Shown one piece after another: positions 46,459 to 62,499 of a stretch of 64,000 nt of DNA. Every line of letters starts with the position of its first letter. The first letter of the stretch is position 1. Position numbers and translations under genes: made by a program. The notes beneath the pieces are model-generated. The model had not been told where the DNA came from, ran no database searches, and saw only the letters and a program-made list of their open reading frames with translations. Origin of the DNA: an uncultured delta proteobacterium (GTDB lineage: Bacteria > Desulfobacterota > Desulfuromonadia > Geobacterales > DSM-12255); NCBI GenBank assembly GCA_963787125.1, contig CAWBBV010000006.1:160001-224000 (forward strand), in the 5' to 3' direction.

Positions 46459-46492
46459 AAAAAAAGAGCCCTGATTTCTCAGACCTCTTTTT
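46459..46492 (-). terminator. Intrinsic terminator downstream of the tRNA remnant
   Basis: AAAAAGAGccCTGA-TTTC-TCAGacCTCTTTTT hairpin; T7 tail on the minus strand. Confidence 0.7.
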
Positions 46493-46497
46493 ATAAT

Positions 46498-46558
46498 TGG
46501 TGCGAGGAATGGACCAGAACCATCACAAGGTTGCCCCCGCCAGCCCCTAAAAGCAGGC
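46498..46558 (-). pseudogene. Degenerate 3' portion of a tRNA-Leu-like gene (probable att-site remnant)
   Basis: Minus strand GCCTGCTTTTAGGGGCTGGCGGGGGCAACCTTGTGATGGTTCTGGTCCATTCCTCGCACCA: variable arm GGGGCAACC, GGTTC T-arm, ACCA end; no D-arm or 5' half. Confidence 0.7.
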
Positions 46559-46807
46559 GGGATAACCTTCTACGAGCCATTCTACAAAACCGTAAACTAG
46601 AAAAAGTCCTTGATCTTTGGCATAGTATCAATAGTATCGCTTCAGCAGTTTTCAACCTTTTCCAGCTGTTTCCAGCCCTGTTCAGTAAACAAAAAGAACA
46701 TGCTCCAGGTCAGCATATCTCCAGGAGCCAGGAAGATACTACGTCAAATCCAGAATAACCGACACTAGCAGAAGCTGGAACAATATACAATAACTGCATT
46801 GAGATGT

Positions 46808-47107
46808 TCAAGAGGGGCTTATGTCGCGAAACTTCCGAAAAGCGCCGATCAGGGCCAGGTTGTTGGCTTCGGTAGCTCCGCTGGTAAAGACAATTTCGCT
46901 CTCTTTACGACAGCCCAGCACCTTGGCAATAGTCTGCCGCGCCTCGTCAACAGCCTGTTTCGCCCAGGTTCCATGAAGATGATAGATACTGGCAGCATTG
47001 CCGTACACTTCGCAAAAATACGGCAGCATCTTCGCCAGCACCCACCTGTCTACCGGCATTGTAGCGTTGTGATCGAGATATATCGGCTCTTCCATTGTTC
47101 TTTTCAT
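46808..47107 (-). pseudogene. N-terminal fragment of a cysteine desulfurase (IscS/DndA type)
   Basis: IYLDHNAT.P...YGNAAS...EIVFTSGATEANNLAL, then truncated at 99 aa. Confidence 0.88.
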
Positions 47108-47223
47108 CTCCTCACCTGCATGAACTCAAAAACAAGCTCGCCTGGCGCTGTAAAATCATTTTGACAGATTACGATTTAGTGTTTAATGTAGTGCTTAATA
47201 AAGCATCAAATGTGAGGTGTTCC

Positions 47224-47502
47224 ATGTCCATCAGTCTCGCAGAAGACATCCGCTCGGTTACCGATCTGAAACGGCATACACGGGAAATTCTTGATCATAT
47301 TCACCGGTCAGGTCGGCCTACGGTGCTTACAGTCAATGGCCGGGCCGATGCGGTCATCATCGACGCCAAAGTCTACGAAAAGCAGCTCAAAGCAATGAAC
47401 CTCGCCCGCCTGTTGTCAGTAGCAGAGGAACAAGTTGCGAGCGGCCAGACTCGTCCGGCCCGCGCCTTTCTGACAGAGTTCAAGAATGCGCGTAACATAT
47501 AA
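47224..47502 (+). CDS. Phd/YefM antitoxin
   Basis: DIRSVTDLKR...GRPTVLTVNGRADAVI; SD GAGG before ATG 47224. Confidence 0.9.
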   Translation: MSISLAEDIRSVTDLKRHTREILDHIHRSGRPTVLTVNGRADAVIIDAKVYEKQLKAMNLARLLSVAEEQVASGQTRPARAFLTEFKNARNI

Positions 47503-47800
47503 CGTCGAAATCACCGCGGCTGCGGAGCGAGATGTTGAGGAGATCTGGATTTACATCGCCGACGACAGCCCGGAAAACGCCACTGCCTTTATACTGCGCC
47601 TTGAGGAGCAGATCGACACGCTTGAGCAGCTTCCCGAGCGCTGCCCGCTGATTCCGGAAAACGAACAGCTCGGTACATCCTATCGCCATCTGCTTCATGG
47701 AGCCTACCGCACCATCTTCCGTATAAACGGCAAGACCGTCTATATCCTGCGCATCATCCACGGCACCCGTCTGCTCGATTCATCCTGCTTCGAAAACTAA
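47486..47800 (+). CDS. RelE/ParE toxin
   Basis: AERDVEEIWIYIADDSPENA...PERCP...YRTIFRI...ILRIIHG. Confidence 0.9.
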   Translation: MRVTYNVEITAAAERDVEEIWIYIADDSPENATAFILRLEEQIDTLEQLPERCPLIPENEQLGTSYRHLLHGAYRTIFRINGKTVYILRIIHGTRLLDSSCFEN

Positions 47801-47809
47801 GAGCTAAAA

Positions 47810-48000
47810 ATCTCTTCAACCAGCCCTTATCAACTGGGCCAGATTCCACCCCCCGCACCCGGTTCACCAGCAGTTCAACACCGCGATTGATATGGGCATG
47901 GAAATAGTCTTCCAGTTCTTCAGGATCAATTTCCTTCTGATGACACCACTGCAGGAACAGCGACGTCAACACCGGTTCATGCTCGCCAAACAGGGTGGAG
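47810..48000 (-). pseudogene. dndE: C-terminal fragment of DndE (DNA phosphorothioation)
   Basis: TLFGEHEPVLTSLFLQWC...EDYFHAHINRGVELL resembles the DndE C-terminus; in-frame stop just upstream, N-terminus missing. Confidence 0.7.
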
Positions 48001-48137
48001 ACATGACAGCTTCAACTTGGCAACTTGGAACCCCGTGTCCCCTCGGAACTCCGGCCCCACTGTTGCCTTCTTGCCACTTGACATTTACCGTAGCCTGATG
48101 AATAGTTTATCAAATTTAAAACCTTTTGAGGTGTGTC

Positions 48138-48356
48138 ATGAGCCCAGCAAAATCGGCATGTGCCAAGGAACTCTTTCACGAGATCGAAACCACGCCGGAG
48201 GAGTATCTGCCGGCTCTTCTGGAAATTGTACGCGGATTCCGCCACGGCATTTTTTTGAAACCTGCGGACGAAAGTTTTCGCCAGGGTATACAGGAAGCGT
48301 TGCAAGGGAATACCTTACCGATATCTGAATTATGGAAGGGCATCGATGCCCGCTGA
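48138..48356 (+). CDS. Putative antitoxin
   Basis: ESFRQGIQEALQGNTLPISELWKGID tail; overlaps the downstream toxin. Confidence 0.75.
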   Translation: MSPAKSACAKELFHEIETTPEEYLPALLEIVRGFRHGIFLKPADESFRQGIQEALQGNTLPISELWKGIDAR

Positions 48357-48690
48357 TTCGGTCTGCATCTCGTTTACCTTCGAATTCAAGCGCAACCTGC
48401 GTGCGCTTGCCAAGAAATACCGCTCCATCCGCACCGACATTCAGCCCCTCATAGACCAACTTAATACCGGCATGCTACCCGGTGATCAAGTCCCTGGCAT
48501 CAGCCTGACTATCTTCAAAGTACGCCTTCAAAACAGTGACATTCAAAAAGGGAAGCGTTCCGGTTACCGTTGCATCTACTATCTCAAAACCCGAAACGAC
48601 ATTATTCTGATTACCGTCTACTCCAAGGCTGAGCAATCAGACGTAACTGCGGCAAGAGTACACACTATCCTCCAAGAAATGGGAAAGTAG
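48346..48690 (+). CDS. RelE-family toxin
   Basis: FKRNLRALAKKYRSI...FKVRLQNSDIQKGKRSGYRCIYY...ITVYSK. Confidence 0.88.
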   Translation: MPADSVCISFTFEFKRNLRALAKKYRSIRTDIQPLIDQLNTGMLPGDQVPGISLTIFKVRLQNSDIQKGKRSGYRCIYYLKTRNDIILITVYSKAEQSDVTAARVHTILQEMGK

Positions 48691-48733
48691 TTTCCGCCAT
48701 GAAAGTTCTCACCCCTAGGCCGACATAACTGTT

Positions 48734-49027
48734 TCAGGTCTTCGGCTCGGTACGGGTAATCATGGTGTTCAGCCCCAGACCGAGCAGCTCCTTCGCCTCC
48801 ACCATCGCCGTCGTAAAACCTCCCTTGACCGCAGCATGGATCACGTTGGGCTCACCCTCTTCGTCCCAGGGCCAGCCGGTCCGCACAAGGGTGATCAACA
48901 GCAGCTCCAGCTTATCCGCTTTTTTGACCAACTCGGTGTACTCGTCCTCCAGTTCCGTCACTAGGGACGGGTCGATTCCCTGTTTCTGCAGCTTAATTTT
49001 GAGTCTTGCCATTGCATTCGGCATCAT
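48734..49027 (-). CDS. Hypothetical protein
   Basis: 97 aa ORF with SD AGGAGG. Confidence 0.65.
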   Translation of the reverse strand: MMPNAMARLKIKLQKQGIDPSLVTELEDEYTELVKKADKLELLLITLVRTGWPWDEEGEPNVIHAAVKGGFTTAMVEAKELLGLGLNTMITRTEPKT

Positions 49028-49202
49028 AGCCCTCCTGGTTGTGCCGGGAACAGCAGAAGGGTTCCCCGGCAGCAGATAGTCAGCGCTGGTGTATAACGAT
49101 GCCCCCCGGTAGCATGCGTTGCTCCAGCCAGCTCTTCAGTAAATGTTTCATGATCGTGCGGCTGACAGGGAAGAGAAAGAAGAGACCGGCATAGCAGACG
49201 TT

Positions 49203-49250
49203 CAGGAGGCGGTTGCCGTTGTCATCCTGTCGCTACAGTTCAAAGCTCAT
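49203..49250 (-). pseudogene. Remnant of a small RQDDNGN-motif protein
   Basis: ATGA-coupled to the hydrolase; reads MSFEL*RQDDNGNRLL with TAG where TGG (Trp) would be expected. Confidence 0.5.
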
Positions 49251-49783
49251 GACCTTGATAGCAGCGCCAGGAAAAAGCGGAACCGGTCTACCAAAAAATC
49301 GAGGCTGTTCTCCAGAGTGTGGCCGTCCGGCACCATTGCCAGCTCCAGGCGGTGCTGGCAGGCAAAGTCCATCACCGGCCCCGGCGGGACAATTGTATCG
49401 TCCCAGCCGTGGATGATGACGGTCGGTGGTACATGGGTCAGCGTTGGCAGATCGGGGTATCCGGGAATGCCGATGGCCGGGGCCATCAGGAACAGGCCCG
49501 CCGGCCTGATCACAGGTGCTGCCGCCAGCGAAACGCTCCCCCCCATGCTGGAACCGGCCAACACAGTAATGCCGCCGTCCTGCGGGTGCTGCGCCAGCAG
49601 CATCCGCACCCGCTCCGCTGGATCGTCCACCCCGCGGTAGTCGATGCTGAGGACCGCGAAGCCCAGCTCCTCCGCCACCGGCGCAAGGCGGCTGATCTTG
49701 AGCCCCCAGGGGCCGGACTCCTTGCCGTGGGAGAAGATGACGGTTTTAGTGAGCGGGGCTTTTTCCATGGATATTTCGGGCAT
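49247..49783 (-). CDS. Alpha/beta hydrolase
   Basis: FSHGKESGPWG, GSSMGG, IHGWDD, DGH. Confidence 0.9.
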   Translation of the reverse strand: MPEISMEKAPLTKTVIFSHGKESGPWGLKISRLAPVAEELGFAVLSIDYRGVDDPAERVRMLLAQHPQDGGITVLAGSSMGGSVSLAAAPVIRPAGLFLMAPAIGIPGYPDLPTLTHVPPTVIIHGWDDTIVPPGPVMDFACQHRLELAMVPDGHTLENSLDFLVDRFRFFLALLSRS

Positions 49784-49819
49784 ATAACGTCCTTTTGAGT
49801 GTACGTGTGATTCGTATGT

Positions 49820-50107
49820 TCAATGCGCCTGCTTGAACGGATGGCAGAGCAGGCAGTGCTCCTTGGGTGGATGCTTCGGCGGCAGCGGTCGAGTAGCGGC
49901 GTTGTGGCAGCTCACACAGCCACTTTCCACTGCTACCCGCCTGTCGCCCTTGGCCAGGGCTCCGCGAAACGGGCGGTGCCGGTCGTCAACGGGGGTGCTT
50001 TTGGGCTTGTCCCGGAAGCTGTTCAGAACCAGAACCAGCAGCAGACCTCCCACGACAGCAATGAAACCCAGATCACGTTTACGCAGAAGCATGATGGTCC
50101 TTTTCAC
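49820..50107 (-). CDS. Small membrane-anchored di-heme c-type cytochrome
   Basis: N-terminal hydrophobic helix; CVSCH and CLLCH. Confidence 0.85.
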   Translation of the reverse strand: MKRTIMLLRKRDLGFIAVVGGLLLVLVLNSFRDKPKSTPVDDRHRPFRGALAKGDRRVAVESGCVSCHNAATRPLPPKHPPKEHCLLCHPFKQAH

Positions 50108-50131
50108 CTCACAATTTCATCCGGTAAAACC

Positions 50132-51113
50132 CTACAGCCGCCACTCTTTCCGATGGTCGGCCAGATACTCGCGAGCCGGCCATTGATACCGGTCTACAGG
50201 CGGAATGATACCACGGCCAGAGAGAGTCTGGAGGAAGCCGGGGACGTTGGGATCGGCGGCGATCTGGCGGGAGGTGATGACGGCGTAGGAGTCCGACACC
50301 CCCATCATCCCCTTGTCAAAGGCCCAGTGACAGAGCTTGCACAGGGCCATGCCGTTGCGGATGTCGTCGTTCTGGCTCCTGCTCCAGGGGACGATATGGG
50401 CGGCATCCACCACGGTGTGCTGTTCCGGCGTGATGATCCGCACCCCGCAGAGGGCGCAGCGGTGGTCATAGGCCTTCACCACAATGCGGCGAAAGCCCTG
50501 ATCACGGGCTGCGGGGCGGTAGTTGTCCGCCTCGATGATTTCCTGCACCAGCGGCAGATGGGATTTTTCTTCCAGCAGTCTGACTGTAGGCGAATGCCTC
50601 GCGATTGATGATCGACTGCTCCCGCAAAAGAGCCGCGGCTTCGGGCGAGAAGCAGGACTGCAGCAGTGCTTCCCGCAACGCCTCTCTCCCCTCCCCGCTC
50701 TGCATGACCTGAAACAGCTCCTCGTCCAGCTTTGCGCCCAGGGCGTACTTGCGCAGGTAGGTGACGGAGGAGGTGTTGTTGATGATTGCCGGGGTAATGG
50801 TTGTGCCCGGTTGCGGCACCAGTTCCCAGAACGGCTCCCGGTCGAGACGGGAGAAGGGAAAGGCGATGCTGCTGGTCTGACCGAGGGGGATGATCCGCCG
50901 CCAGTAGAGGTTGAACAGCTCGTTCAGCTCCACCAGATCGCCGGTCACGGCGATGAACGGCGAGGTGATGACGCCGCGATGCACCAGATCCAGCACCGCC
51001 AGCAGCAGGAGCGGTTTGTGCGGGGCCTTGCGCTTGGTGGCGTCGGTCCAGGTCGCGCCGGGGGCGCGGTTGAGGGAGGCGAAGTGTTTGATGGATGTGG
51101 TGAGGTTGGTCAT
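50132..51113 (-). pseudogene. SBD-HNH phosphorothioate-dependent restriction endonuclease-like gene, split by a +1 frameshift near 50582
   Basis: N-part: APHKPLLLLAVL...W...FPFSRL..EPFWEL. C-part: RDQGFRRIV..AYDHRCALCG...AAHIVPW...NGMALCKLCHWAFDKG. Removing one base joins them. Confidence 0.85.
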
Positions 51114-51187
51114 GGTTTCTTTCAGATTATTGAGAAACTAAAGAGAGTTGAGACACGACATCTAGAGGCGATCAAAATGTCAAAAAG

Positions 51188-52273
51188 TCAACCCTTACCC
51201 CGCAGGGTCCCACCCTTGATCTGTCCGCCTGCCGGGACTTGCAGTTGCTGAATATCCTGCTCCAGTTCCTTAAGACTTACTTCATGCTGAATCTGCCGCT
51301 GCACTTCACGATATTTGTCGAACTCAAGCGCCGACTTTTCCAGCGCCATCTGGTGGCTGATCTTTCCGGCATGGGTGAGCAGATCGCGGCCATTAAGCTG
51401 AATTATCGCGTCCAGCCGGGCAATCCAGTCATTCATGTACATGGGAGTTCGCTGCAGCACCATGGTTTCTGCAAAGGCCAGGTACTGTTCAACCAGCAGT
51501 CCGAGCAGCTTCATTTCATCCTCTGTCAGATAATTCTTGGCAATGCTCACATCGCTTTTGCGCACCGCCAGTTCACCCTTTTTGTCACAGGACTGCATCC
51601 CCATGAGCGGCAGCGCAGCATCGGCCCGGCGGAATACCAGCTCCGCCGCTGTCTGCTGGCTGATGGCCCAGAGCAGTTTGTTCTGCACCACCTTGAAGAA
51701 CTCGATCGTCTTTTCGTCCCTGGGATCGTAGTCGATACTGGTTGCGTAGATATCCTTGATTTTCTGGTAGAAGAAGCGCTCCGAAAGTCGGATTTCACGG
51801 ATGCGTTCCTGCAACTCGCTGAAATAATTCATGGAGCTGCCGCTCTTGAAGCGCTCGTCGTTCAGGGCAAAGCCCTTGACGATATACTCCTTGAGTCGCT
51901 GGGTGGCCCAGATGCGGAACCGAACGCCCTGTTGGGATTTAACCCGGTATCCGACCGAGATGACCAGATCCAGGTTGTAAAAGTTGACCTCTTTCGACTG
52001 AGTTTTCCCTTCAATTGCGCCGTGTCGGGTGGTTGTCCGGAATTTCCGGATAACCACCTGCTCGTCCAGTTCACTCTCGTCGAAGATATTCCGGATATGC
52101 TCCGATATGGTTTTTTTGCTTTTGCCGAATAACTGCGCCATATGGTCCTGCGACAACCAGACCGTCTCGTCCTCCAGTCGGACATTGATCCGGATTGTCC
52201 CGTCCGGCGCCTGATAAATGAGTATTTCCGAGTTATTCACGCTTATGGGAGAATTGGTCAGGTCTTTGCTCAT
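51188..52273 (-). CDS. RhuM-family protein
   Basis: ETVWLSQ..MAQLF...YNLDLVISVGYRVKS...FRIWAT..LKEYIVKGF...IREIRLSE. Confidence 0.92.
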   Translation of the reverse strand: MSKDLTNSPISVNNSEILIYQAPDGTIRINVRLEDETVWLSQDHMAQLFGKSKKTISEHIRNIFDESELDEQVVIRKFRTTTRHGAIEGKTQSKEVNFYNLDLVISVGYRVKSQQGVRFRIWATQRLKEYIVKGFALNDERFKSGSSMNYFSELQERIREIRLSERFFYQKIKDIYATSIDYDPRDEKTIEFFKVVQNKLLWAISQQTAAELVFRRADAALPLMGMQSCDKKGELAVRKSDVSIAKNYLTEDEMKLLGLLVEQYLAFAETMVLQRTPMYMNDWIARLDAIIQLNGRDLLTHAGKISHQMALEKSALEFDKYREVQRQIQHEVSLKELEQDIQQLQVPAGGQIKGGTLRGKG

Positions 52274-52411
52274 TGGTATTATCCTTTAACGGATTCTCTG
52301 TAAATGTGAAGAATGGAGAACCGGCCCTCGCATTCTCCTCAACAGCTCGTTCTGCTTCCAACAGTGAAAACAGGTTTCATCCCTCATAATTCATCCTTCA
52401 TAATTGTATTT

Positions 52412-52485
52412 CGCTTGGTGGCGTCGGTCCAGGTCGCGCCGGGGGCGCGGTTGAGGGAGGCGAAGTGTTTGATGGATGTGGTGAG
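52412..52485 (-). repeat. 74-bp exact duplicate of the 5' end of the SBD-HNH gene (51031-51104)
   Basis: CGCTTGGTGGCGTCGG...GGATGTGGTGAG is identical at both sites. Confidence 0.92.
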
Positions 52486-52723
52486 TGAGGTCATGGCCTT
52501 GTTATCATAATTTGTTCGGATTTGGAGTTCGACCAGCTTTGGCTTTAGCAGAAGAAGCTGAGTTAGTCAATTGATCACTATCCCTTAATCCCATTCAACA
52601 GATTTTACACTGTTTTTTGAACTGGAGAGGTTCTCAGGCTTAAGCCAAAAATATAAGTTGACAATGGCAGTAGCTTTAGTAAACTTACTACGTGCAGTAA
52701 ACATACTAACCAGGAGAAAACAT

Positions 52724-53212
52724 ATGCCATACGAAACGAAACAGAAGAAGAAAATTGACCCGACTGACGAACTCCCACAGAACCTTTCACACAAGCCTGT
52801 ATATGCATTGCCATATGAATATTTCGATGGGTTTTACGCTGGGAAAACTGACGCAAGATTCATTTCCATCGGCTTAGCACAATATGATCACGACGAAGTT
52901 TCAGTTAAAGTTTTTAGGCACACAGGGGAAAAATGGACGAGACAATCTGAGGAACTTCCACTTCACAGGATGATAGATGCCGTCACCTTTTTAACGAAGA
53001 TTATTTTTGGTACGGACAATGGAAATGCGGTTTTTGAATCAGAAACATTTGAGAATCAGTCTGAAACATTAAAGCTTACACGTGAGGATAGGACGGCAGG
53101 AGAGTTGGCAAGATTTCATAGATTTTTGGCAGACAATGACAAATTAATAAAGGATCGATTGAACGTATTATATGATCTTATGGGCGAACTGAAAGAAAAA
53201 GGTAAATTTTAA
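52724..53212 (+). CDS. DUF6530-like protein
   Basis: LSHKPV...Y..FDG.YAG.TDA..ISIGLAQ...KVFRHTGEKWTRQSEELPLHR; SD AGGAG. Confidence 0.75.
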   Translation: MPYETKQKKKIDPTDELPQNLSHKPVYALPYEYFDGFYAGKTDARFISIGLAQYDHDEVSVKVFRHTGEKWTRQSEELPLHRMIDAVTFLTKIIFGTDNGNAVFESETFENQSETLKLTREDRTAGELARFHRFLADNDKLIKDRLNVLYDLMGELKEKGKF

Positions 53213-53245
53213 TAATCTGACAACATTTTTGGAATTAAATACATT

Positions 53246-53267
53246 AAGGCGGCCGATCGGCCGCCTT
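53246..53267. terminator. Perfect 22-bp palindrome between convergent genes
   Basis: AAGGCGGCCGATCGGCCGCCTT is its own reverse complement. Confidence 0.6.
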
Positions 53268-53278
53268 CCGTAATTACA

Positions 53279-54271
53279 CTATGCTCTTCTACAAAGAGCA
53301 GTGGGGGCAGCCGTGGAAATAAACGCCGCGTGTCCAGCTTCAAATGGAGCGACTGAAAGAATATCGTTTTCAAGCGAGATAATGATAGTTCCAGCGCAGC
53401 ATGCATTTACGGTTTTACCGGCAGAAAATGTATTAACAAGATGATCTCCTGCGTTTTCAGGCAACATGCTAGCGCAATGCTCTGAAAGCTGTGTGCAGAC
53501 GATTCTTGCCCCTGGCACAACCTCCTTAATGGCTTTTATAATATTTGGTTGTGGTGTCGAATATCTGCCTCTTCCGATTGAGAACACAACGGTATTGGGT
53601 TGAATACAATTACATACCTGTTTCGTGAATTCTATTAAGTCAGCCCCCTCAACTTTCCCCCCATGGTGTGGAAATACAATTACTGGTGCTGTGGCATCAA
53701 CTTGGCATTCAGTAAGATATTCCATCATGTTGAGAAAGCCGGTATTATCTATATCCCCAGTGAATACTAGAATCGGCCTATCGTTTTGCAGGACTCTAAT
53801 TACTGCACTTACGGAATTAGACGTTATCGAACGATTACTCCGGTCCTTTGAACCAGGACCTTTCCCTGCCAAGTAAATGCTAGGTGCAAGTATTTCAACC
53901 TTGAAGGCTCCAAAGTTAAAGGTGTTTGAATCGCTGACTGTAAGAGCTACACCGAAGTCGACGTCCCCACCATTATGAGCCTTGCTCAATGTAAAGAGTA
54001 GGTCGTCCCAAATGATAGAAGCTTTACGAGAGTCCGTATTGAGCCGGACTTTTCCAATTGTGAATTCCTCAGAACTAAGCAGCCCTATTAAACCTGCAAT
54101 ATGGTCTTGATCTGCATGCGAGATTAGAAGTACATCAACGTTCGAAATCCCTTCTGCTTTAAGGAACTCCATTAGAGAAGCTCCTGGTCCGGCATCAATT
54201 ACGAGTGTATGATTATCTTCTCTGACAATCGCACAATTGCCGTGCCCTACGTCCAAAATGAATGCTGGCAT
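53279..54271 (-). CDS. ComEC/Rec2-type metallo-beta-lactamase-fold hydrolase (probable nuclease)
   Basis: LDVGHG, IDAG, SHADQDH, NSVS, FTGD, PHHGG; no membrane domain. Confidence 0.88.
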   Translation of the reverse strand: MPAFILDVGHGNCAIVREDNHTLVIDAGPGASLMEFLKAEGISNVDVLLISHADQDHIAGLIGLLSSEEFTIGKVRLNTDSRKASIIWDDLLFTLSKAHNGGDVDFGVALTVSDSNTFNFGAFKVEILAPSIYLAGKGPGSKDRSNRSITSNSVSAVIRVLQNDRPILVFTGDIDNTGFLNMMEYLTECQVDATAPVIVFPHHGGKVEGADLIEFTKQVCNCIQPNTVVFSIGRGRYSTPQPNIIKAIKEVVPGARIVCTQLSEHCASMLPENAGDHLVNTFSAGKTVNACCAGTIIISLENDILSVAPFEAGHAAFISTAAPTALCRRA

Positions 54272-54279
54272 GACTAGAA

Positions 54280-54945
54280 CTACCTCCCGCGGAACTCAAA
54301 CTCGTCAAAGTACAGTTCTTCGTCAGACTCAGCTCCGGTGTTTACCTTTGCAAAAAACCTCGTTCCAGGTTTAATCTCGGCTCTAAACTCGAATGGGATT
54401 ATATCCATTGGGAATCTTATTATCTCTGACGGGTTCCATCCGGGAATATTCGCAAAGACAATAGGGTTTTTCGTATCTAAATCCACCTCTTCAACTCGAA
54501 GAAGAGTTTTCCAAGGCCGTCTTTTCGGCAAAAAATGATTACTAAATTCTTGAATACAAATTTCGAATCCTTTAGCTATAACATCAGGATCAGCTTCATC
54601 ATGTGAGAGAAGAACGGGTATCTTCCTACGAAAGCGTCTCATATCGTCGATTAACGCTTTACTCCAACTTGTAACAAGCACAGCAGGAAATCTAACATCA
54701 TAAGATATTGCAACTGCTTCAGCACCGGTGCAATAGGCATAATTTCTGGTGCTTAGATGATGATCACACACAATTGCGTCAGCTTCTCCGCGCGCAATGC
54801 CGACCAACTCGTCTGCACTCTTGAAAGGTCCAATAAGAGGTTTAGCATTAAATTGTGCATCTCTGAGTTCAGCAGAAAGGGTTTCTCGGGCATCGTCAGA
54901 ATCATCGACTACAGCAATAGATATTATGCTCACATTACGCTCCAA
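54280..54945 (-). CDS. Receiver-domain protein with an unknown beta-rich C-terminal domain
   Basis: IAVVDD, IVCDHHL, VLVTS. Confidence 0.78.
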   Translation of the reverse strand: MERNVSIISIAVVDDSDDARETLSAELRDAQFNAKPLIGPFKSADELVGIARGEADAIVCDHHLSTRNYAYCTGAEAVAISYDVRFPAVLVTSWSKALIDDMRRFRRKIPVLLSHDEADPDVIAKGFEICIQEFSNHFLPKRRPWKTLLRVEEVDLDTKNPIVFANIPGWNPSEIIRFPMDIIPFEFRAEIKPGTRFFAKVNTGAESDEELYFDEFEFRGR

Positions 54946-56992
54946 GTATCGGCAGTTCTACCGAAATTTCCGCACCACCCAAAGATCCATTTGACAGTGC
55001 GCTGATGGATCCACCCAAATCTTTTACAGTGTCACGGACTATTGTAAGGCCAAGGCCTGTGCCATTAGGATAGGTAGTTTCACCAGGGAGCCAAATATCC
55101 TTAAGGCTTATTCCAGATATGCCTGGACCATTGTCAGCGATGACAATAGTCACTATCCCATCTGCGACTTGCGTCTCAACAGAAATCAAACGATCCTGAG
55201 GAGGAGCCGTCTCGAAAGCCTTCAAGGAGTTTGTTATGATATTTGAGATAATTGACTCTATTGCTGCCTCGCTAGCCCGGAGATACGGATTCCCCGCATC
55301 ATATTTGAACCTTACTTCGGTTTTTCTCTCTTTTATCGTTAAAGCAAACATATCAACAACATCACTGATAACCTTATGAATATCGACCCGAGAAACCCGT
55401 CGTTTTTCATGATCTATAAAATTCAAGGTCAAGCTACCAAATGCTTTAAGTATTTCCGCTTGACGTTGAACAATTCCAATAGGACCTTCAAAGAACTCTT
55501 CAAATTTATCTGATACCGCTGTTTTCGCACGATTCTCAATGAGCTTTGCATTTTTTTCAATAAGCCTAAGTGGATGTTTTGACTCATGAGCAAAAATACC
55601 TGCCGTAATCCCTGCAGTACTAAGAGTCCTGTAGAGTTGAACTTCCTTTTTGAGGATTACAGTCTCCTTAGTTCGTGCTCGATCATAATCTTTGAATTTC
55701 TCTTCTACGTTTTTCTTTTCTTCAGATGGCAACAATTTAATAGCTTCATCAATAGTTTGTTTAGCCTTGTCAACTTCACCTTTTGCTTGTTGTCTTTGCT
55801 GTTGTCTTTTAGATTCTCTTTCTTCTTTTCTCCGTCGATGCATCCAATCAAGTGCATCGGTAGCAAAGCGCTTCAATTCATGAAACAATTCACTCTCAAC
55901 AAGGCCCGAACGATCCGTTTTCTGAAGAAGGTCTTCATTTGTACCAATTACAGCCATTCGGCCAATTGACGTATTAGTTCCAGGGCGTAACTCAGGATCT
56001 CGAACGCGACTAAGATTCATGTCAAGCCAGTCGTTCCCTGGGTTTCCATATGGCGAGACACGAAGACCATGTATATATAAGTGGACTCCACCAAATTCCT
56101 TAAGCCATGCTTTGACCTCGCCGACGGTTGTTGGACGAAAGGAAAACGTATCGCTACTGAGAATATACGCCCAAATGTCAAATGTAGCCGGAGGGCAATT
56201 GTACTTACTGACCTTAGGACTTATTTCATCGTGATCAGCGGCAAAGAGCTTGTTTCCTTTCCAATCCGTAACCGTTGCTTTAACCTGCCCATTTGTGTCA
56301 ACTTCTGCAAAAAGATGAAATTCAGCATCATCAAAATATCTTCGCTGAACAAGTTTTTCTAGATCTTCGAATTCAGGAGCTTTCAATATGGGCTGAAATC
56401 CAGAAGGATTGTCTCCAAAAGGATCCGCAAGCAACAACAGACCCCTAGCCAGCCTTTTCACGTCATTGCGAGTTATCCTATAACGAAGGTTAGCGATTCT
56501 TATCTCGGTTCCCCTTCCGACACTTGAAGCACGAACAGTTTCTTCTATCTCCAGGTCAACTTCTTCAACAACATCGAACTGGTCAAATTTTCTCCAATCT
56601 ATGAACAGTGAGTATTGTTTTTTCTCCTCTTCTAACGGCCTAGTAAGCAGGGTGGTTTCAGTACCTAGTCTTAATGCAGCGAGCCTTCCAAGCCCTTTAT
56701 TCCCGGCAGGAATTCGTCCTAAGCGTGTTACCTTCCTAACATTTTTTGCTGACTTTCCAAGTAGCAACCAACTGTTTTCGATATCCTCTTTTTCCATTCC
56801 TTCGCCATCATCACTTACAGAAATCGTTCCTCCGAGTACTTGTGTATTCCTTATCTGGATCGTGCAAGTATTAGCATCTGCGTCATATGCATTCTTTACC
56901 AATTCAAGAATTCCTTGGTCGGGGTTTGGGTTCAACTCCTCACCAAGACGTCTAAGAATATCGGTAGAAAATTTTAAGTGCGCTTTACTCAT
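54935..56992 (-). CDS. GHKL (MORC/MutL-like) ATPase fused to a histidine kinase
   Basis: ELVKNAYDADA, DDGEGM, GNKGLGR, GTEI; then FAHESKHPL, NIITNS, DNGPGI, GTGLGL; ATG 56992 overlaps the MTase stop. Confidence 0.9.
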   Translation of the reverse strand: MSKAHLKFSTDILRRLGEELNPNPDQGILELVKNAYDADANTCTIQIRNTQVLGGTISVSDDGEGMEKEDIENSWLLLGKSAKNVRKVTRLGRIPAGNKGLGRLAALRLGTETTLLTRPLEEEKKQYSLFIDWRKFDQFDVVEEVDLEIEETVRASSVGRGTEIRIANLRYRITRNDVKRLARGLLLLADPFGDNPSGFQPILKAPEFEDLEKLVQRRYFDDAEFHLFAEVDTNGQVKATVTDWKGNKLFAADHDEISPKVSKYNCPPATFDIWAYILSSDTFSFRPTTVGEVKAWLKEFGGVHLYIHGLRVSPYGNPGNDWLDMNLSRVRDPELRPGTNTSIGRMAVIGTNEDLLQKTDRSGLVESELFHELKRFATDALDWMHRRRKEERESKRQQQRQQAKGEVDKAKQTIDEAIKLLPSEEKKNVEEKFKDYDRARTKETVILKKEVQLYRTLSTAGITAGIFAHESKHPLRLIEKNAKLIENRAKTAVSDKFEEFFEGPIGIVQRQAEILKAFGSLTLNFIDHEKRRVSRVDIHKVISDVVDMFALTIKERKTEVRFKYDAGNPYLRASEAAIESIISNIITNSLKAFETAPPQDRLISVETQVADGIVTIVIADNGPGISGISLKDIWLPGETTYPNGTGLGLTIVRDTVKDLGGSISALSNGSLGGAEISVELPILGA

Positions 56993-58278
56993 ACCTTTCT
57001 CCACGGGATCTCTGCGATTGAAGATATAGTTAAATGACGGCATCTTATACGCTCATTTAACCAATCATTTGCCCACTTTGTGCTTAGCATATTCAACAGC
57101 GCTTGGCAGGTTTCAAGTGATTTATCCTTAGGCTGTAATACTATTAAATGATTATCGACTGCTACTGAAGAGTCCACGTTAATGATAGTCGATACTGCTC
57201 TAAATAAATCATCCGGCCTTGATGTCCTTCTAATAACTACAAATGGCGAAGGAATTATCTTACGAGAATACCTTCGACTGTGACTAACATGGCTTACAAT
57301 TGACCATTTCGGTAGATCTTTAGAGATAAGATATGGCACCGTCGGACCATCGTGCGAATCTCTATAATCAACCACTGTACCTATCGACAAATCAAACATA
57401 CTAGAAATTGTGCTGCAATTGTTTGTTACAGGGTAGCTCCAGTTGAGAGTACTATCATTGTTATTAACAATTAAGGCATCGATTAGGAAAACATTCACAT
57501 CAATACTAGGTTCAAATTGTCCCAATGCTGTTATTTTATTAACTAGCATTTTTTTGCTGACAATACGTCTCCATCTTTCATAGCGTGCACCTGATCTAAG
57601 TACTTCTGGAAGTATTGCTATAATTCGCGTTCCCACATTGGATTTAACAACATAATCGTGAAAAAAAACGGCTGCGTAGTTAGTTTTTCCTGACGACCAT
57701 ACACATCCTTTTGGTGTGTCAACAAGATTGTAAGGTGGATTCATGACAACATAGTTAAAATCCATACCGATGTCAGCAGTAGTTACTCCACAGCCCTGTT
57801 TTATGTTTTTGAAATAGGTACCTATTCCTTTAAATCGTTGAGGTAGTGCCGCTCCTTTGTGTAACGCAGTAAGTGCAAGCCTAGCTTTTGTTGCCATTAC
57901 GAATTCATGGTGCAAATCACTTCCGTAAAAAATATTGCCCCATGAAGACATCGTATTCTCGAAATCTTCAGTAATAGTTATGTTTTTTGCCACGTCTACC
58001 AGCAAATCACCAGCACCGCATGCAGGATCAATGATTTTATGTTGGCAACCAAGTAATTTTGAGTCAATCAGCTGAGTGGTTTCATTCGCTAAGAAACCTC
58101 CAGAAAAAAAAGCACCAGACTCCCTTCTTGCTTCGTATGACACAAGTTGCTGAAGCTTCCGCGCTGGCTGACCATTAAGGGCAGAAATTACCGAAACATC
58201 ATCCTTCGGAATAGATCCAAAAACGATCCCTTCGCACAATTTTTCTAGATGTGAAACGTATCCAGCGTATGCTTTCAT
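56989..58278 (-). CDS. Amino (probably N6-adenine) DNA methyltransferase with a putative C-terminal recognition domain
   Basis: IDPACGAGDLL precedes MNPPY (gamma-type order). Confidence 0.9.
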   Translation of the reverse strand: MKAYAGYVSHLEKLCEGIVFGSIPKDDVSVISALNGQPARKLQQLVSYEARRESGAFFSGGFLANETTQLIDSKLLGCQHKIIDPACGAGDLLVDVAKNITITEDFENTMSSWGNIFYGSDLHHEFVMATKARLALTALHKGAALPQRFKGIGTYFKNIKQGCGVTTADIGMDFNYVVMNPPYNLVDTPKGCVWSSGKTNYAAVFFHDYVVKSNVGTRIIAILPEVLRSGARYERWRRIVSKKMLVNKITALGQFEPSIDVNVFLIDALIVNNNDSTLNWSYPVTNNCSTISSMFDLSIGTVVDYRDSHDGPTVPYLISKDLPKWSIVSHVSHSRRYSRKIIPSPFVVIRRTSRPDDLFRAVSTIINVDSSVAVDNHLIVLQPKDKSLETCQALLNMLSTKWANDWLNERIRCRHLTISSIAEIPWRKV

Positions 58279-58384
58279 AATAGTCCTAAGGTGTAATGCA
58301 AACTACGCAAACATAACACGATTTTGCAAAAATACACATACCTTCTGTTGCCTGTGAAGAGGTGCTTCATCAATTCCCGACTAC

Positions 58385-58555
58385 CTACCCACCCCTTCTA
58401 TTATCCTCAAACATCTCCACCGGCATCTGATGCCTGAGCCGCCAGACCATCTTGATCGGCCGGTCGCTCTCGTAACTGACCATATCCACCGGCCCCAGAT
58501 AGGTAAACGGCACCTTGACATTGTTCCGCTTTTTTTGGTCGCGGGCAAACCGTTC
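58385..58555 (-). pseudogene. C-terminal fragment of a DUF3427-type (helicase-associated) protein
   Basis: FARDQKK...PFTYLGPV...YESDRPIKMVWRL..MP; upstream part missing. Confidence 0.6.
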
Positions 58556-58855
58556 AATACCCGTTTTTACTTGCTCTTTCCTCGAGGTCACGCCATTCGG
58601 CAATTTTACTTTCCAAATATCTGAGCTGACTTGTACGGTCTCTGCTGAAGAAGTGGCTTAACTCACTTGAAAGATCAATACGTATAAAAATTCTATTAGG
58701 TTTGTCCTGGTCCTGGTCGGTAAGGCCAAGTTTTATCAGGTTCTTCGAATCAATCGATTTTCCCAAATTTAATTCAAACACCAAATAGGCAGGCTGATTG
58801 TAATATATACCTATCCAACATCTATTTCCTTCTGTGTAGTAACCGATATACTCTT

Positions 58856-60105
58856 TGAACTTCCCCCGAGATTGTGGACAGTCCGAAAAGCTGCTACAAA
58901 AGCAGACGGAGGACAGTCATGGTATCGAAGAGAAAGTCGTTCACCCGCGAGTTCAAGATCGAAACGATCAAACTGGTTACCGATGGAGGTGCCGATGTAA
59001 ACCAGATAGCGAGCGATATGGGGATTCACCCCAACACGCTTTACAACTGGATCAGGCAGTTATCGGTTAAACCTGAAGAAGCGTTTCCCGGCAAAGGGCA
59101 TATGACCTCTGACGCGGAGATAATCCGTCAACTTAAGCGTGAAAATGAGCGTTTAAAGATGGAGCGTGAAATCTTAAAAAAAGCAATGGCCATCTTTTCA
59201 AAAGACCCGACTTGACCTTTAGCTTCATCCGTGAGAATCAGACTGAGTTTCGGATCTCCATCATGTGTAGCGTTTTCGACGTTTCACGGAGCGGATATTA
59301 CGCCTGGTTAAAACAGCCAGAAGGCAAAAAAAGTCAAGAAGATCAAGCGCTATCAGAGGTGATCAAAGAGATTCACCAAGAGAGCAATCGCACCTACGGA
59401 AGTCCCAGGGTGCACCGGGAACTACAGAGGCGCGGCAAGCATTACGGTCGTAACAAGATTGCCCGCCTGATGAGAAAAGATGGCCTTAGAGCGAAGACGA
59501 AGCGCAAGTTCAAGGCAACGACCAACTCTAAGCATAAGTTGCCCGTGGCGGCCAACCTTCTCAATCGGGAGTTCACGCCAAAGCGGCCTAACCAGGCATG
59601 GGCCGCAGACATCACTTACATCTGGACCGGCGAGGGGTGGCTCTACCTGGCAATAGTTATGGACTTGTTTTCACGTGCCATCGTTGGGTGGTCCATGTCG
59701 GAGCGAATGACCCGGAATATTGTCATCGATGCTTTCATTCTCGCAGTTAAGCGACGAAACCCGCCGCGTGGACTGATTCATCATTCCGATAGAGGGTCGC
59801 AGTATGCAAGCATTGAATTCCAGGCCCTGTTAGTGAAAAATGGCACAACTTGCAGCATGAGTCGCAAAGGTAATTGTTGGGACAACGCACCGGCAGAAAG
59901 CTTCTTTGGGACACTTAAGAGAGAGCTTGTATTTCACTGCCAGTATTCAACCCGAGCCGATGCACGCCAGAGCATCTTCAGTTACATAGAACGTTTCTAT
60001 AACCGTAAAAGAATTCATTCTTCGCTGGGGTATCGGACTCCATACGAGGCGGATCAACTCAAATTTGCAGCTTAACACCCTGTCCACTGAACCGGGGGAA
60101 CTTCA
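58856..60105 (+). mobile_element. IS3-family element, 1250 bp
   Basis: 25-bp imperfect IRs TGAACTTCCCCCG...GTGGACA / TGTCCAC...CGGGGGAACTTCA; 3-bp target duplication CTT. Confidence 0.95.
58919..60075 (+). CDS. IS3 transposase OrfA/OrfB with -1 programmed frameshift
   Basis: OrfA HTH (FTREFK...LYNW); A7G at 59176-59183; Orf[25 protein letters not shown]. Confidence 0.93.
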
Positions 60106-60793
60106 CTTTCCCGCCGCTAAGCGGTTTTGATTTGATCGAATTATGCTCGATTGCTTTGCCAATCATATTAAGCAGATTGTGGAGCGACGTTACGCCTTCA
60201 ACAAGTTGCCAACTGACATGATCCATGACGATCCCCTTTGACTCTAAGAATTGCTTGAATTGATCGACTACATAACGGCTCAGATCTTTCGTAATTATAA
60301 GTTGTGTGAGGTACTCATAAATGTCAGACCATCTAAGACATAAATCCGGTTTATGGTGATTTAATCCGTTTCCTAAAGGATACTTAGTTAACAAAACAAG
60401 AAATGTATCAGCATAGCCACTCTTTGATAAAGCTGATCTGTAACGCTTTATCTGGTCCAGCCCCAATCCTGATTCGGATTTAACTTCAATATAGCCAAGA
60501 GATATTGTCGATTTGATCTGAATATCAGGCCTACCATCGCTTGTTGCTACCTGGGTGATAATAGTAACTTCATTACAATCGGCAGCAGTGACGTCGATGT
60601 GACCATTACTGATTTTTTTGAACAACTGGACAGCAGCAACCTGCTCATGTTCTTGCAAAAATTGAAGTAAATAGACGAATGCCTCCGTCATGAAGTTTTC
60701 GTCCTGCCGGTATGCCCAACGGTTCAATCTTGATAAAAGATCCATAGAAAATCAAACTCCTACAAGGTAAGTACGGGTTCCGGAAGCATATTG

Positions 60794-61687
60794 TTAACGC
60801 CCACTCACCCCTACCCCCGCCACAACAATCGGCATCTCAAACATGAACCCCAGATACGGCAACTCCCGCGCGGCCTTCTCGTAACTCATCATCCCTGAAT
60901 AAACCGGCGACCGCTCACTTACAGAGTTCTCCCGCGCTCGCTTCTGCCCCAACTCGCACAGGAGCGCCGCAAAGGCCGTCATCGGACAGAGAAGCAGGCC
61001 GAGCCTGGCAGCCCTGTATTTACGGGCCAGCATGAACTTTACATAGTCCTGGTAGTAGGAGCGGGCATTGCCGAACTCCACCTCTACCCAGATGCCGTTC
61101 TTCTCGAAATCGCACTTGAGCCCCAGTTCCGGCACAACCCGCTGCTCCCGCTGCCAGCCTCGATCAACTAATCCTGCGCTGATCAAACCGTTGTAGTCCG
61201 CCTGATTGAAAGCAGCATCATAATCCACCGCGGCCAGCGACTCCCTGATCTGGTGAATCTCTGTGATGCCCTCCATTTCCTGCCTCTCCAGGTGATGCAG
61301 CTGTAGAGCGCCGATCTGCAGGGCTGGAGCGGTACTCTTCAAAATCGGCTTGAACAGGAAGGTGAACGGCGCAACCTCGACAATCTCCAGCAGGTTCCCT
61401 GCTACCGATCCGCCGAATACCGCAGCCAGCCAGAGCCGCAGCCGCTCCTGTGACTTGTTTTCATAGCGGAACTGGAGATGGCCCGGTTTGTTGTTCAAGC
61501 GGCGTATCTCGGCCTTCACCGGTTCTTCAGCACCGCAGAGTATTGTCACCGCGACCTTGCCGCCCTTCTCTATCGCCCGCAGCCGCTCCGTCTGCGCCTC
61601 AAGCGGAATCGTCACGCCGTACCTGAAGGTGGACAGACCGACCGGGTGGAGGAACTTCAAGTTTTCAAACAAAGAAGGCTGCATCAT
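60794..61687 (-). CDS. BglII/BstYI-like restriction endonuclease domain with an extra N-terminal domain
   Basis: CDFEKNGIWVEVEFGN...QDYVKF...MSYEK. Confidence 0.75.
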   Translation of the reverse strand: MMQPSLFENLKFLHPVGLSTFRYGVTIPLEAQTERLRAIEKGGKVAVTILCGAEEPVKAEIRRLNNKPGHLQFRYENKSQERLRLWLAAVFGGSVAGNLLEIVEVAPFTFLFKPILKSTAPALQIGALQLHHLERQEMEGITEIHQIRESLAAVDYDAAFNQADYNGLISAGLVDRGWQREQRVVPELGLKCDFEKNGIWVEVEFGNARSYYQDYVKFMLARKYRAARLGLLLCPMTAFAALLCELGQKRARENSVSERSPVYSGMMSYEKAARELPYLGFMFEMPIVVAGVGVSGR

Positions 61688-62499
61688 GTGTGCAAGAACA
61701 CCTCTTCCCGGTGCATCTGCATAAACTCGGCATCCGGTGGAAACTTCTCCGGCATCACGATCTGCTTCCCTTCGTAATCAAGGAAGTTACGCGCAAGCGA
61801 ATCGTTCGGCAAATACTCTCGCAGATAAGGGCTGAGTACAAGACGATACTCTTCGTCCAGAGTGATTAGCCCCTTGTCAAATGCAGCGTCCTGGGTCTGC
61901 GCAAGGCAAAGGCCATTCTGCGGATTAAGACGCTGCTCCGGGTATTTGCCCCACGGGAGGATGTGGCTTGCCACTAATAGCGCCGGAACCGGATTTCCGG
62001 TAATGCAGCAGCAGCTGTTGTAGGAAGCGAGCACGCTTTGGCGAAAGAACTGCTGGCCGAGGCGTGTCTTTACCGAGACGATCTTTTCTGTCGGTCCGGA
62101 AGGTTCTGTGATAGGGAGCTTGAATATGGATTGGCGGCGTGACGTGCTCTTTCCTGGCACAGCAGCCGGCTCCGCCACTTCGGTCTGCCCGATCAACAGT
62201 TGCAGCTGTTCTTCGCTGGTTACGCCATACTCTTCCCAATTGGCGGTGAACTCATTCCACGCTTCCCGATCAGCGCGACTTGCCCCCTGCAAACCCTTGA
62301 TGCCACGGGCCTGATGGTACGGGTCGAGCGAGGCAAGGTTGCACAGCTTCATGGAAAGGCTGCTGGGCGTCCTGCCGAGCTTTTGCGCGACTTCGATGAT
62401 CAGGGGGTTGCCATGGCGCAGCTGACCAAAGGGAAGCTTGCAATACAGGTTCATTGCCAGCATCAACTCATCATGTGACCACGCTTTACCTTGTGCCAT
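61684..62499 (-). CDS. HNH endonuclease with N-terminal helical domain
   Basis: WSHDEL...LGRTPSSL..KL.NLASLDP; RLGQQFFR..VL..Y...CCITG...ASHILPW...NGLCL...DAAFDKG. Confidence 0.88.
   Translation of the reverse strand: MAQGKAWSHDELMLAMNLYCKLPFGQLRHGNPLIIEVAQKLGRTPSSLSMKLCNLASLDPYHQARGIKGLQGASRADREAWNEFTANWEEYGVTSEEQLQLLIGQTEVAEPAAVPGKSTSRRQSIFKLPITEPSGPTEKIVSVKTRLGQQFFRQSVLASYNSCCCITGNPVPALLVASHILPWGKYPEQRLNPQNGLCLAQTQDAAFDKGLITLDEEYRLVLSPYLREYLPNDSLARNFLDYEGKQIVMPEKFPPDAEFMQMHREEVFLHT

Follow-up and report, generated by a model that had tools for sequence, protein, structure and literature searches.

A putatively mobile cassette of a DNA methyltransferase, a MORC-type histidine kinase, a receiver and a ComEC-type hydrolase as a candidate phosphorelay-controlled restriction-like system

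The 64,000-nucleotide stretch of DNA analysed here (the window; uncultured delta proteobacterium, contig CAWBBV010000006.1, positions 160,001 to 224,000) carries four minus-strand genes between its positions 53279 and 58278. They encode an N6-adenine-type DNA methyltransferase, a soluble histidine kinase with two ATP-binding modules, a receiver-like protein and a hydrolase with metallo-β-lactamase (MBL) fold. The locus raises the question whether the four genes form one unit and, if so, what a two-component phosphorelay could control between a methyltransferase and a putative nuclease. The best reading is a phosphorelay from the MORC-like kinase to the receiver that would control the MBL protein as a nuclease. 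The chances appear about even that the cassette as a whole is a mobile four-gene defence unit resembling restriction-modification systems, in which a His-Asp relay controls a ComEC-type nuclease via protein contact.

All features of the cassette given below lie on the minus strand. The methyltransferase gene (56989-58278, 429 aa) is followed by the kinase gene (54935-56992), whose 685 aa are counted from the ATG that overlaps the methyltransferase stop; a longer alternative frame, beginning at 57043, is also present. This junction is an ATGA overlap with GGAG nine bases upstream of the kinase ATG. The receiver-like gene (54280-54945, 221 aa) overlaps the kinase gene by 11 bp with the TTG at 54945 taken as its start, and an alternative in-frame GTG at 54933 would leave a gap of one base after the kinase. 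The receiver stop is separated from the ATG of the MBL gene (53279-54271, 330 aa) by 8 bp containing GGGAGG. The GC content in 500-nt windows is 0.38-0.46 across 52500-58999 compared to 0.48-0.64 across 44500-52499. None of the four proteins contains a 19-residue window that reaches a Kyte-Doolittle value of 1.6 and therefore, all four are apparently devoid of membrane segments. The frames, overlaps, short gap and low GC content bear out the description in an earlier note on this DNA, which had seen four intact, AT-richer and translationally coupled genes.

A survey of four-gene conservation, suggested as a check by the earlier note, showed that the linkage is kept. It used one genome per species and yielded 43 loci, namely 40 with full-family kinases (39-58% identity) and three with generic kinase-core matches. 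Of the 40 full-family loci, 39 have kinase, receiver and MBL genes colinear on one strand, and the contig of the remaining one ends inside the kinase. A methyltransferase homologue is present in 36 of the 40. At 32 loci it is the gene directly upstream on the same strand, three actinomycete loci have it upstream in divergent orientation, and at one locus it lies downstream on the opposite strand. The linkage of kinase, receiver and MBL protein is far beyond chance. Three of the four loci without a methyltransferase homologue have a different DNA methyltransferase beside the cassette: an Eco57I-type methylase and a BsuBI/PstI endonuclease adjoin it at locus L001, an N6_N4_Mtase-Mrr fusion at L022 and an Eco57I-type methylase at L024. 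Median gaps, for which start codons were chosen by a heuristic, are -4 nt between methyltransferase and kinase (exactly -4 nt in 14 of 31 loci), 2 nt between kinase and receiver and 2 nt between receiver and MBL gene. Pairwise distances among kinase, receiver and MBL protein correlate with r values of 0.85-0.89 (29 loci), and those involving the methyltransferase with 0.71-0.76; the correlations are descriptive only because the sequences are related. The data fit a three-gene core whose methyltransferase may occasionally have been swapped.

The genes flanking the cassette vary by locus and include transposases, a TrwC relaxase, TniQ, phage terminase and the restriction genes MmeI, Mrr, HSDR_N and DUF4420. 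The same four genes occur on a conjugative Burkholderia plasmid as well as on a Hymenobacter plasmid. According to record titles, the cassette is spread over many phyla, with members in Actinomycetota, Acidobacteriota, Bacteroidota, Planctomycetota, Pseudomonadota, Spirochaetia, Verrucomicrobiia and others. A full-length kinase was found in none of 40 relatives of the host (seven from the same genus, 15 from the same family and 18 from the same order), which gave five ordinary kinase-core matches. Since the gene order is kept, the flanks vary, plasmids carry copies and the close relatives lack the kinase, the cassette can be considered as a horizontally moving unit. In 400 gammaproteobacterial species genomes, searched with a profile of the N-terminal 440 kinase residues, the orthologous family was detected in two and distant cousins in 27. 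Among 50,697 phage genome records, none covered at least 80% of the kinase and one partial match covered 34%. A further plasmid, from Pseudanabaena (NZ_AP017563.1, 3998-8774; L104), carries kinase, receiver and MBL gene with no methyltransferase listed, and an IS982 transposase interrupts the MBL gene. This single case, with an incomplete gene table, would agree with a nuclease tolerated only in the presence of methylation.

The kinase contains two ATP-binding modules according to Pfam, HATPase_c_3 (9.2e-23, aa 44-165) and HATPase_c (4.7e-22, aa 592-699), both numbered in the 702-aa frame. In the numbering of the 685-aa protein, the first is a MORC/paraMORC-type GHKL ATPase domain at aa 1-170 (56483-56992) with the motif ELVKN at position 30. 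Its invariant residues among 33 sequences are E30xxxN34xxD37, D61xGxG65 and G97xKGLGR103. Among family models, the NCBIfam entry for the N-terminus of BbrUII/HgiDII restriction enzymes matches the kinase N-terminus best (2.5e-20), and comparison with the PDB gave weak matches to MORC3 and MutL (E about 0.0025). The adjoining α/β middle domain (aa 175-365, 55898-56470) has many invariant residues including K358-T-D-R361. The invariant K358 sits in QKTDRSG; in MORC and paraMORC proteins, the GHKL domain is followed by a transducer of S5 fold in which a Lys is conserved. The fold search with the kinase model listed kinase cores and gave no match for the middle domain, which may represent the transducer-like half of a GHL ATPase.

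The next stretch (aa 368-525, 55418-55891) is a long coiled coil that leads into the helices of the dimerisation and histidine phosphotransfer (DHp) domain. It comprises helices 368-419, 423-470, 475-492 and 494-525 in the kinase model and carries the H-box FAH469E with FAHE at position 467. H469 is invariant and the adjacent E470 is kept in at least 90% of 33 kinases. From aa ~463 onward, the protein matches the solved histidine kinases ZraS and FixL in a PDB sequence search. The catalytic ATP-binding domain (aa 533-685, 54938-55396) has N584, N588, D620xGxG624 and G644xGLGL649 as invariants in the same 33 kinases. The model, with a predicted local distance difference test (pLDDT) value of 82.9, consists of four parts, namely the GHKL domain, the middle domain, two helices of ~50 residues that run into the DHp domain near His469 and the catalytic domain. 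Its best Foldseek matches are histidine-kinase cores, with ZraS at 5.9e-14, and CpxA and HK853 match as well. Thus, the two ATP-binding modules, the H-box and the missing membrane segment claimed before were all recovered, and the motifs and the His are invariant.

The receiver protein has no sequence match in Pfam (including Response_reg), NCBIfam, PADLOC or the PDB. Its structure was modelled with confidence (pLDDT 94.9, predicted template modelling score 0.90) and shows a divergent CheY-like receiver domain at aa 6-138 (54532-54930). Among the Foldseek matches listed, nearly all are response-regulator receiver domains, and VIA-align gave Z scores of 13.0 for Rv1626 (rmsd, the root-mean-square deviation, 2.8 over 119 aligned residues) and 12.7 for EutV. 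D15 and D61 are invariant in 34 receivers and D14 is kept in at least 90%, while position 93 (T93 here), read from the alignment, is Thr or Ser in most sequences. D61 is the predicted phospho-acceptor. No conserved Lys is found in the 34 receivers at the position of CheY Lys109; R103 and I109-P110 are invariant instead. This agrees with the earlier observation of a receiver that keeps the DD, D and T residues without an evident Lys.

The remainder of the protein is a small β-rich output domain (aa 139-221, 54283-54531) with invariant W170 and N202. Residues 145-217 form five strands with a helix between the third and fourth (β-β-β-helix-β-β, assigned by DSSP), the strand order found in oligonucleotide/oligosaccharide-binding (OB) folds. 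OB folds often bind nucleic acids. The tail gave no Pfam match and no usable Atlas match, and the Foldseek and VIA-align matches listed are receiver domains. A profile search of 1.84 billion representative proteins clustered at 50% identity returned 404 representatives of the receiver family at E≤1e-30, and each of the best 150 is a stand-alone protein with a length of 175-248 aa.

The MBL protein matches Lactamase_B in Pfam (5.7e-12) and the ComEC/Rec2 family TIGR00361 (6.8e-10). Among PADLOC effectors it resembles RTasMBL (6e-16) and LmuA (1.3e-10), and Avs1a was also matched. When a family profile of 33 members was compared with the PDB, ComEC/Rec2 chains came first with 9.2e-20 (9vcb, 9vcf and 9ic4), followed by the phosphorylcholine esterases CbpE/Pce with 1.3e-10 and, more weakly, by the nucleotide-signal hydrolase Apyc1. 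In these 33 proteins, H10, D26, H52xD54xD56H57, D173, H202, H203 and C259 are invariant. C266, C292, H314 and C327 are kept in at least 90% and form, together with C259, a Cys/His-rich tail. The protein of the window has HADQDH at position 52 and Cys at 259, 266, 291, 292 and 327. The Cys/His-rich C-terminal ~70 residues lie beyond the best-matched ComEC stretch, which ends at profile position ~250. No PD-(D/E)XK, HNH or GIY-YIG gene was found in the operon with Pfam and PADLOC, and the MBL protein is its only nuclease candidate; on the evidence of these motifs and relatives, it is a probable nuclease. The observation that a soluble MBL protein of the ComEC clade with a Cys-rich tail takes the place of a conventional restriction endonuclease is thus confirmed.

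The step from receiver to nuclease, which the earlier note had proposed as a licensing by His-Asp transfer, gained support from a predicted direct complex of the two proteins. It scored 0.78 (0.75, 0.78 and 0.82 in the individual runs), while three controls all gave 0.00. This mark is reached by 116 of 157 solved complexes and by 2 of 215 mismatched pairs, counts that hold only roughly here because the prediction of the receiver with the MBL protein used its own alignments. The runs share at least 84% of contacts, and the pLDDT value of the partner is at least 88. The predicted interface comprises, on the receiver side, residues 139-206 of the C-terminal domain including the invariant W170 and, on the MBL side, residues 29-35, 55-69, 86-98 and 282-288, i.e. 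the helix after the HxDxDH motif with its vicinity. Within the receiver tail, residues at the interface have a conservation of 0.55 compared to 0.43 for the others, and 3% of random residue sets reach 0.55. The receiver tail is thus predicted to dock on the MBL protein.

The methyltransferase was recognised as N6_Mtase by Pfam (2.3e-6) and as MTase_II by PADLOC (1.6e-9), and has the motifs DPACGAG at aa 84 and NPPY at aa 180. No sequence match in the PDB was obtained at E≤0.1. Across 34 homologues from different phyla, its C-terminal half is as conserved as the region of the catalytic motifs. Conserved residues in this half (aa ~195-429, 56989-57700) include R351-T-S353, N376-H377 and C413-R-H-L-T417. 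The conservation suggests either a common target motif or a role in protein contact.

Several further features lie around the four genes. A GC-rich hairpin (53246-53267, minus strand) from a scan for terminator-like sites is located 12 nt past the MBL stop and has 9 pairs, 7 of them G-C. It is likely, on sequence grounds, the operon terminator, shared with a convergent DUF6530 gene; the count of terminator-like sites in the region is not higher than in shuffled sequence. A weak sigma-70-like site (58329-58358, minus strand; TTCACA-18-TATTTT, 9/12) 50 nt upstream of the methyltransferase start is a candidate promoter, and 12 promoter-like sites were found in the region with 13.0 expected from shuffles. 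The DUF6530 gene (52658-53212, plus strand, 4.4e-27) is convergent with the MBL gene and lies within the same low-GC block. DUF6530 was not seen among 90 flanking open frames scanned at related loci and thus, it is apparently not part of the cassette.

Upstream of the cassette, a remnant of 72 aa (58385-58603) weakly matches the C-terminal end of DUF3427 (E 0.003), and beyond it lies an IS3-family transposase (58874-60075) in two frames, 58874-59215 and 59212-60075. Further upstream, restriction-like genes at 60059-62499 encode a protein with weak similarity to PD-(D/E)XK proteins, an endonuclease resembling BglII (1.2e-10) and an HNH protein (PADLOC HNH, 1.1e-93). On the other side, two overlapping minus-strand frames at 50132-51113 jointly resemble one phosphorothioate-dependent restriction endonuclease; the first, of 203 aa, matches NF045808 positions 12-141 and the second, of 138 aa, contains HNH_2. 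They look like one frameshifted restriction-like gene. The HNH genes of the window (50132-50548 and 61684-62499) are outside the operon. A RhuM-family gene (51188-52273; PADLOC PDC-S05, 7.1e-135) is flanked by an 88-nt direct repeat (51028-51115 and 52409-52496, 95% identical). The repeated sequence corresponds to the 5' end of the split restriction-like gene with its start at 51113 and therefore, an orphan copy of that gene start lies exactly at the edge of the low-GC block. By its gene content, the neighbourhood of the cassette is apparently a defence island. The earlier statement that the four genes stand amid pseudogenes holds for the DUF3427 remnant, the IS3 element and the split restriction-like gene; several other neighbours look intact.

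How the parts could work together can be outlined as follows. The kinase appears from its sequence to be a soluble dimeric histidine kinase whose sensor is a complete MORC/paraMORC-type GHKL ATPase with its middle domain, connected by the coiled coil to the DHp domain. Closure of the N-terminal clamp, dependent on ATP and DNA, would travel down the coiled coil and switch autophosphorylation. The receiver, predicted to have a true CheY fold with Asp61 invariant, would take up the phosphoryl group from His469. Its β-rich tail is predicted to sit on the MBL protein next to the helix following the HxDxDH motif, and phosphorylation would switch the nuclease on or off by contact rather than by transcription. 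The MBL protein would then cut DNA. The least secure step concerns the methyltransferase: the co-translated N6-adenine methylase may modify host DNA and let the clamp tell self from incoming DNA. Both the role of methylation as a self-mark and the sensing of DNA by the clamp are pure inference. A more specific form, less likely than not, is a restriction system whose phosphorelay separates discrimination from cleavage: the MORC-like clamp would read DNA methylation into autophosphorylation, and a permanently docked receiver would gate cleavage by the MBL protein post-translationally.

A number of observations weigh against this reading. The defence role draws on context and analogy since PADLOC has no model for the kinase-receiver pair. 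Simple protective methylation is argued against by the nearest tested analogue, the Ambrosia system of Pseudomonas aeruginosa, in which methylation by AbrA left phage unprotected according to the available part of its preprint (bioRxiv 10.1101/2025.09.30.679545). In classical restriction-modification systems, target-recognition domains diversify, whereas the C-terminal half of the methyltransferase here is conserved. The canonical receiver Lys is missing, which could alter the chemistry of phosphotransfer. On the MBL protein, residues of the predicted interface show no higher conservation than the remaining ones (0.44 vs 0.52). One locus (L019) has no methyltransferase in the three upstream frames and one downstream frame scanned, and its MBL frame is intact. 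At about 8 of the 40 loci, one gene contains stops or is fragmented; some of these cases may reflect faulty assembly because many loci come from metagenome bins. Finally, ordinary housekeeping genes flank the cassette at several loci.

The alternative that survives best, although unlikely, keeps relay and nuclease and gives methylation another purpose than marking self. The methyltransferase could be part of the sensor complex or mark the target, with the activated MBL protein degrading DNA indiscriminately in a response that resembles abortive infection, or the relay could be inhibitory, so that kinase activity on normal cellular DNA would keep the nuclease off. This would agree with the missing protection by AbrA methylation in the Ambrosia preprint and with the methyltransferase, in which the C-terminal half is kept in different phyla instead of varying as a diversifying specificity domain would. 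In 14 of 31 loci, the methyltransferase and kinase genes overlap by 4 nt (ATGA type), which suggests a stoichiometric pair of the two proteins, and the PADLOC matches to RTasMBL, LmuA and Avs1a show MBL effectors in defence systems that are free of methylation. However, another DNA methyltransferase adjoins three of the four loci without the cognate one, which fits methylation being needed to tolerate the nuclease. The same need would be consistent with the IS982-split MBL gene on the Pseudanabaena plasmid that has no listed methyltransferase, one case with an incomplete gene table.

Control by transcription, as proposed for Ambrosia, is quite unlikely. The phosphorylated receiver would act via its tail on DNA or RNA polymerase and induce methylase and nuclease upon infection, so that the amount of the nuclease and not a contact is regulated. 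The OB-like strand order of the tail would suit a nucleic-acid binder. In the preprint's available part, reporters within the Ambrosia cluster are barely expressed at rest and strongly induced upon infection, every part of the system is required and the receiver mutation D60A abolishes anti-phage defence (bioRxiv 10.1101/2025.09.30.679545). However, the receiver of the cassette contains no winged helix-turn-helix (wHTH) or other DNA-binding family recognised by Pfam or NCBIfam, and the predicted binding of its tail to the MBL protein is of high confidence, with controls at 0.00. No regulator of the XRE or another type is conserved beside the cassette: among the 90 flanking frames, a Cro/C1-type (HTH_3) regulator occurs only at L018, downstream on the opposite strand, and an AraC-type one at L010. 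The four genes are also translationally coupled behind a single upstream region.

A function outside defence, namely as a cytoplasmic two-component module for epigenetic control, DNA repair or, in analogy to ComEC, the processing of taken-up DNA, is very unlikely. A 2021 paper on a cousin family proposed, in the part of its text available, only signalling linked to restriction-modification (PMC8011034), several loci lie among glpX, gyrB and uvrD-like housekeeping genes, and the closest solved relatives of the MBL protein are competence proteins. The patchy spread, with none of 40 close relatives and 2 of 400 gammaproteobacterial species genomes, speaks against it, as do plasmid carriage, the restriction and mobile-element neighbours here and at other loci, and an MBL protein that is soluble and without the ComEC membrane domains. 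That the MBL-fold protein hydrolyses a small molecule, a nucleotide signal or RNA has the slimmest chance, for although CbpE/Pce are its second-best solved relatives (1.3e-10) and Apyc1 and RNase Z match more weakly, the match to ComEC/Rec2 chains (9.2e-20) is stronger by nine orders of magnitude, the protein has a GHG...HxDxDH pattern of ComEC type, and it is accompanied by a DNA methylase and a MORC-like ATPase; relatives of the latter are proposed, in the literature as far as available, to act on DNA.

The more specific form with a docked receiver would, if true, be the first case of a GHL clamp as input domain of a two-component kinase reporting on DNA and the first of a receiver domain gating a separate nuclease by contact. 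If the main reading holds, the cassette would be a natural example of a receiver controlling an enzyme in trans, and the kinase-linked restriction-like systems would gain a further branch that is widespread and compact and has a mechanism of its own. Sensing of nucleic acids by MORC-type ATPases, a question shared with the eukaryotic MORCs, would become testable via a simple phosphorylation output. The Ambrosia design would furthermore have effector-swapped relatives far outside the Gammaproteobacteria.

The cassette was compared with known systems. PADLOC, proposed earlier as a check, returned no system-level match. A known defence system was rejected as PADLOC gave single-gene matches only (MTase_II, REase_II N-termini and MBL effectors of other systems), and NCBIfam matches were all sub-threshold, e.g. 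MADS2 with 0.0089. A classical type II restriction-modification system was rejected as well, there being no sequence-specific endonuclease of known fold paired with the methylase. Prokaryotic MORC and paraMORC ATPases were described in restriction-modification neighbourhoods by Iyer et al. in 2008 (PMC2292703, available part), and an older proposal, summarised in the Tiamat preprint, is that they sense unmethylated DNA and recruit nucleases. As at such loci, genes for a DNA methylase and a putative nuclease accompany one whose product begins with a HATPase_c_3 GHKL domain; in contrast to them, this domain is fused to a full histidine-kinase core and would signal via a receiver. The effector has its best sequence relative in the C-terminal MBL domain of ComEC/Rec2, with which it shares the GHG...HxDxDH...HH pattern. 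Unlike ComEC/Rec2, it is soluble, stand-alone and without a membrane channel.

The earlier note knew of no functional study of this four-gene form, and this needs to be amended since related work exists: the kinase-receiver pairs reported in 2021 (PMC8011034), the phosphotransfer defence system Detocs and the validated Ambrosia system of 2025. No literature description was found of the form with methyltransferase, GHKL kinase, receiver and MBL protein itself, for which Tables S1 and S2 of the Ambrosia preprint and a DefensePredictor figure with HATPase and REC may be relevant.

Detocs (DtcA-DtcB-DtcC) defends by His-Asp phosphotransfer to a non-transcriptional effector and needs both kinase His and receiver Asp. 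As described in the part of the preprint available, it combines a kinase containing tetratricopeptide repeats (TPR), a receiver that acts as a buffer and a PNP ATP-nucleosidase fused to another receiver, with neither a methylase nor a GHKL clamp (bioRxiv 10.1101/2023.01.24.525353). The cassette differs in having one receiver gene, a separate MBL effector and no TPR, while the Detocs effector is attached in cis. No PADLOC Dtc match was obtained, though whether this library includes a Dtc model was not checked.

Bellieny-Rabelo et al. reported in 2021 soluble HATPase_c_3 + HEF_HK + HATPase_c kinases paired with Response_reg_2 proteins (PMC8011034). These pairs adjoin mostly C5-cytosine methylases, Vsr and HNH_2, and a relation to paraMORC ATPases was proposed. 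The available text of that paper does not mention MBL proteins, lacks the words phage and defense and proposes signalling linked to restriction-modification only. The cassette likewise has a soluble HATPase_c_3 + DHp + HATPase_c kinase, a stand-alone divergent receiver and a linked DNA methylase. Membership in PF19191/PF19192 was rejected: the cassette proteins gave no match at E≤0.01, and whole-genome scans at E≤10 hit elsewhere with values below the cut-off. By its architecture, the cassette apparently works like the PF19191/PF19192 family, yet is a separate sequence family.

The distant cousins from the gammaproteobacterial genomes were also inspected. Eight of the 12 cousin kinases scanned have the dual-GHKL architecture. 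Their loci (L086-L094 and the plasmids L044 and L045) carry C5, HsdM-like or Eco57I-type methylases, receiver-first proteins of ~360 aa, Vsr and, in convergent orientation, a SIR2 gene. The cousins sampled in Gammaproteobacteria have the architectures of the PF19191/PF19192 pairs and not that of the cassette. When profiles of the receiver and of cousin proteins from two plasmids were compared, no significant match resulted (probability <2%). None of the 12 cousin loci scanned shows the combination of XRE, N6-methyltransferase, kinase, REC-wHTH and HNH. Given these partners, the design can be considered as a modular superfamily with swapped methylases and effectors, in which the MBL form is one well-defined branch.

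The system closest to the cassette is Ambrosia, whose components AbrR-AbrA-AbrB-AbrC-AbrD are a HipB-like XRE regulator, an N6-methylase, a histidine kinase/HSP90-like ATPase, a REC-wHTH protein and a type IV HNH nuclease. Phage grown on the AbrA methylase alone remained sensitive to it. Within the part of the preprint available, Ambrosia is reported from Gammaproteobacteria only and its receiver wHTH is proposed to act on transcription (bioRxiv 10.1101/2025.09.30.679545). Compared by domains only and not by the AbrA-D sequences, both systems have an N6-adenine methyltransferase, a kinase/HSP90-like ATPase, a receiver and a nuclease, putative in the case of the cassette. The cassette lacks the XRE regulator of Ambrosia: the DUF3427 remnant and the IS3 element are located upstream instead, and the flanks of the family are also without a conserved XRE gene. 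Its receiver output is β-rich with one short helix in contrast to the wHTH of Ambrosia, and its effector is a ComEC-type MBL protein predicted to bind the receiver in contrast to a type IV HNH nuclease. It is found in many phyla, whereas Ambrosia has been reported from Gammaproteobacteria alone. The new element of the cassette is thus the direct contact of receiver and nuclease predicted by modelling, as opposed to the transcriptional control proposed for Ambrosia.

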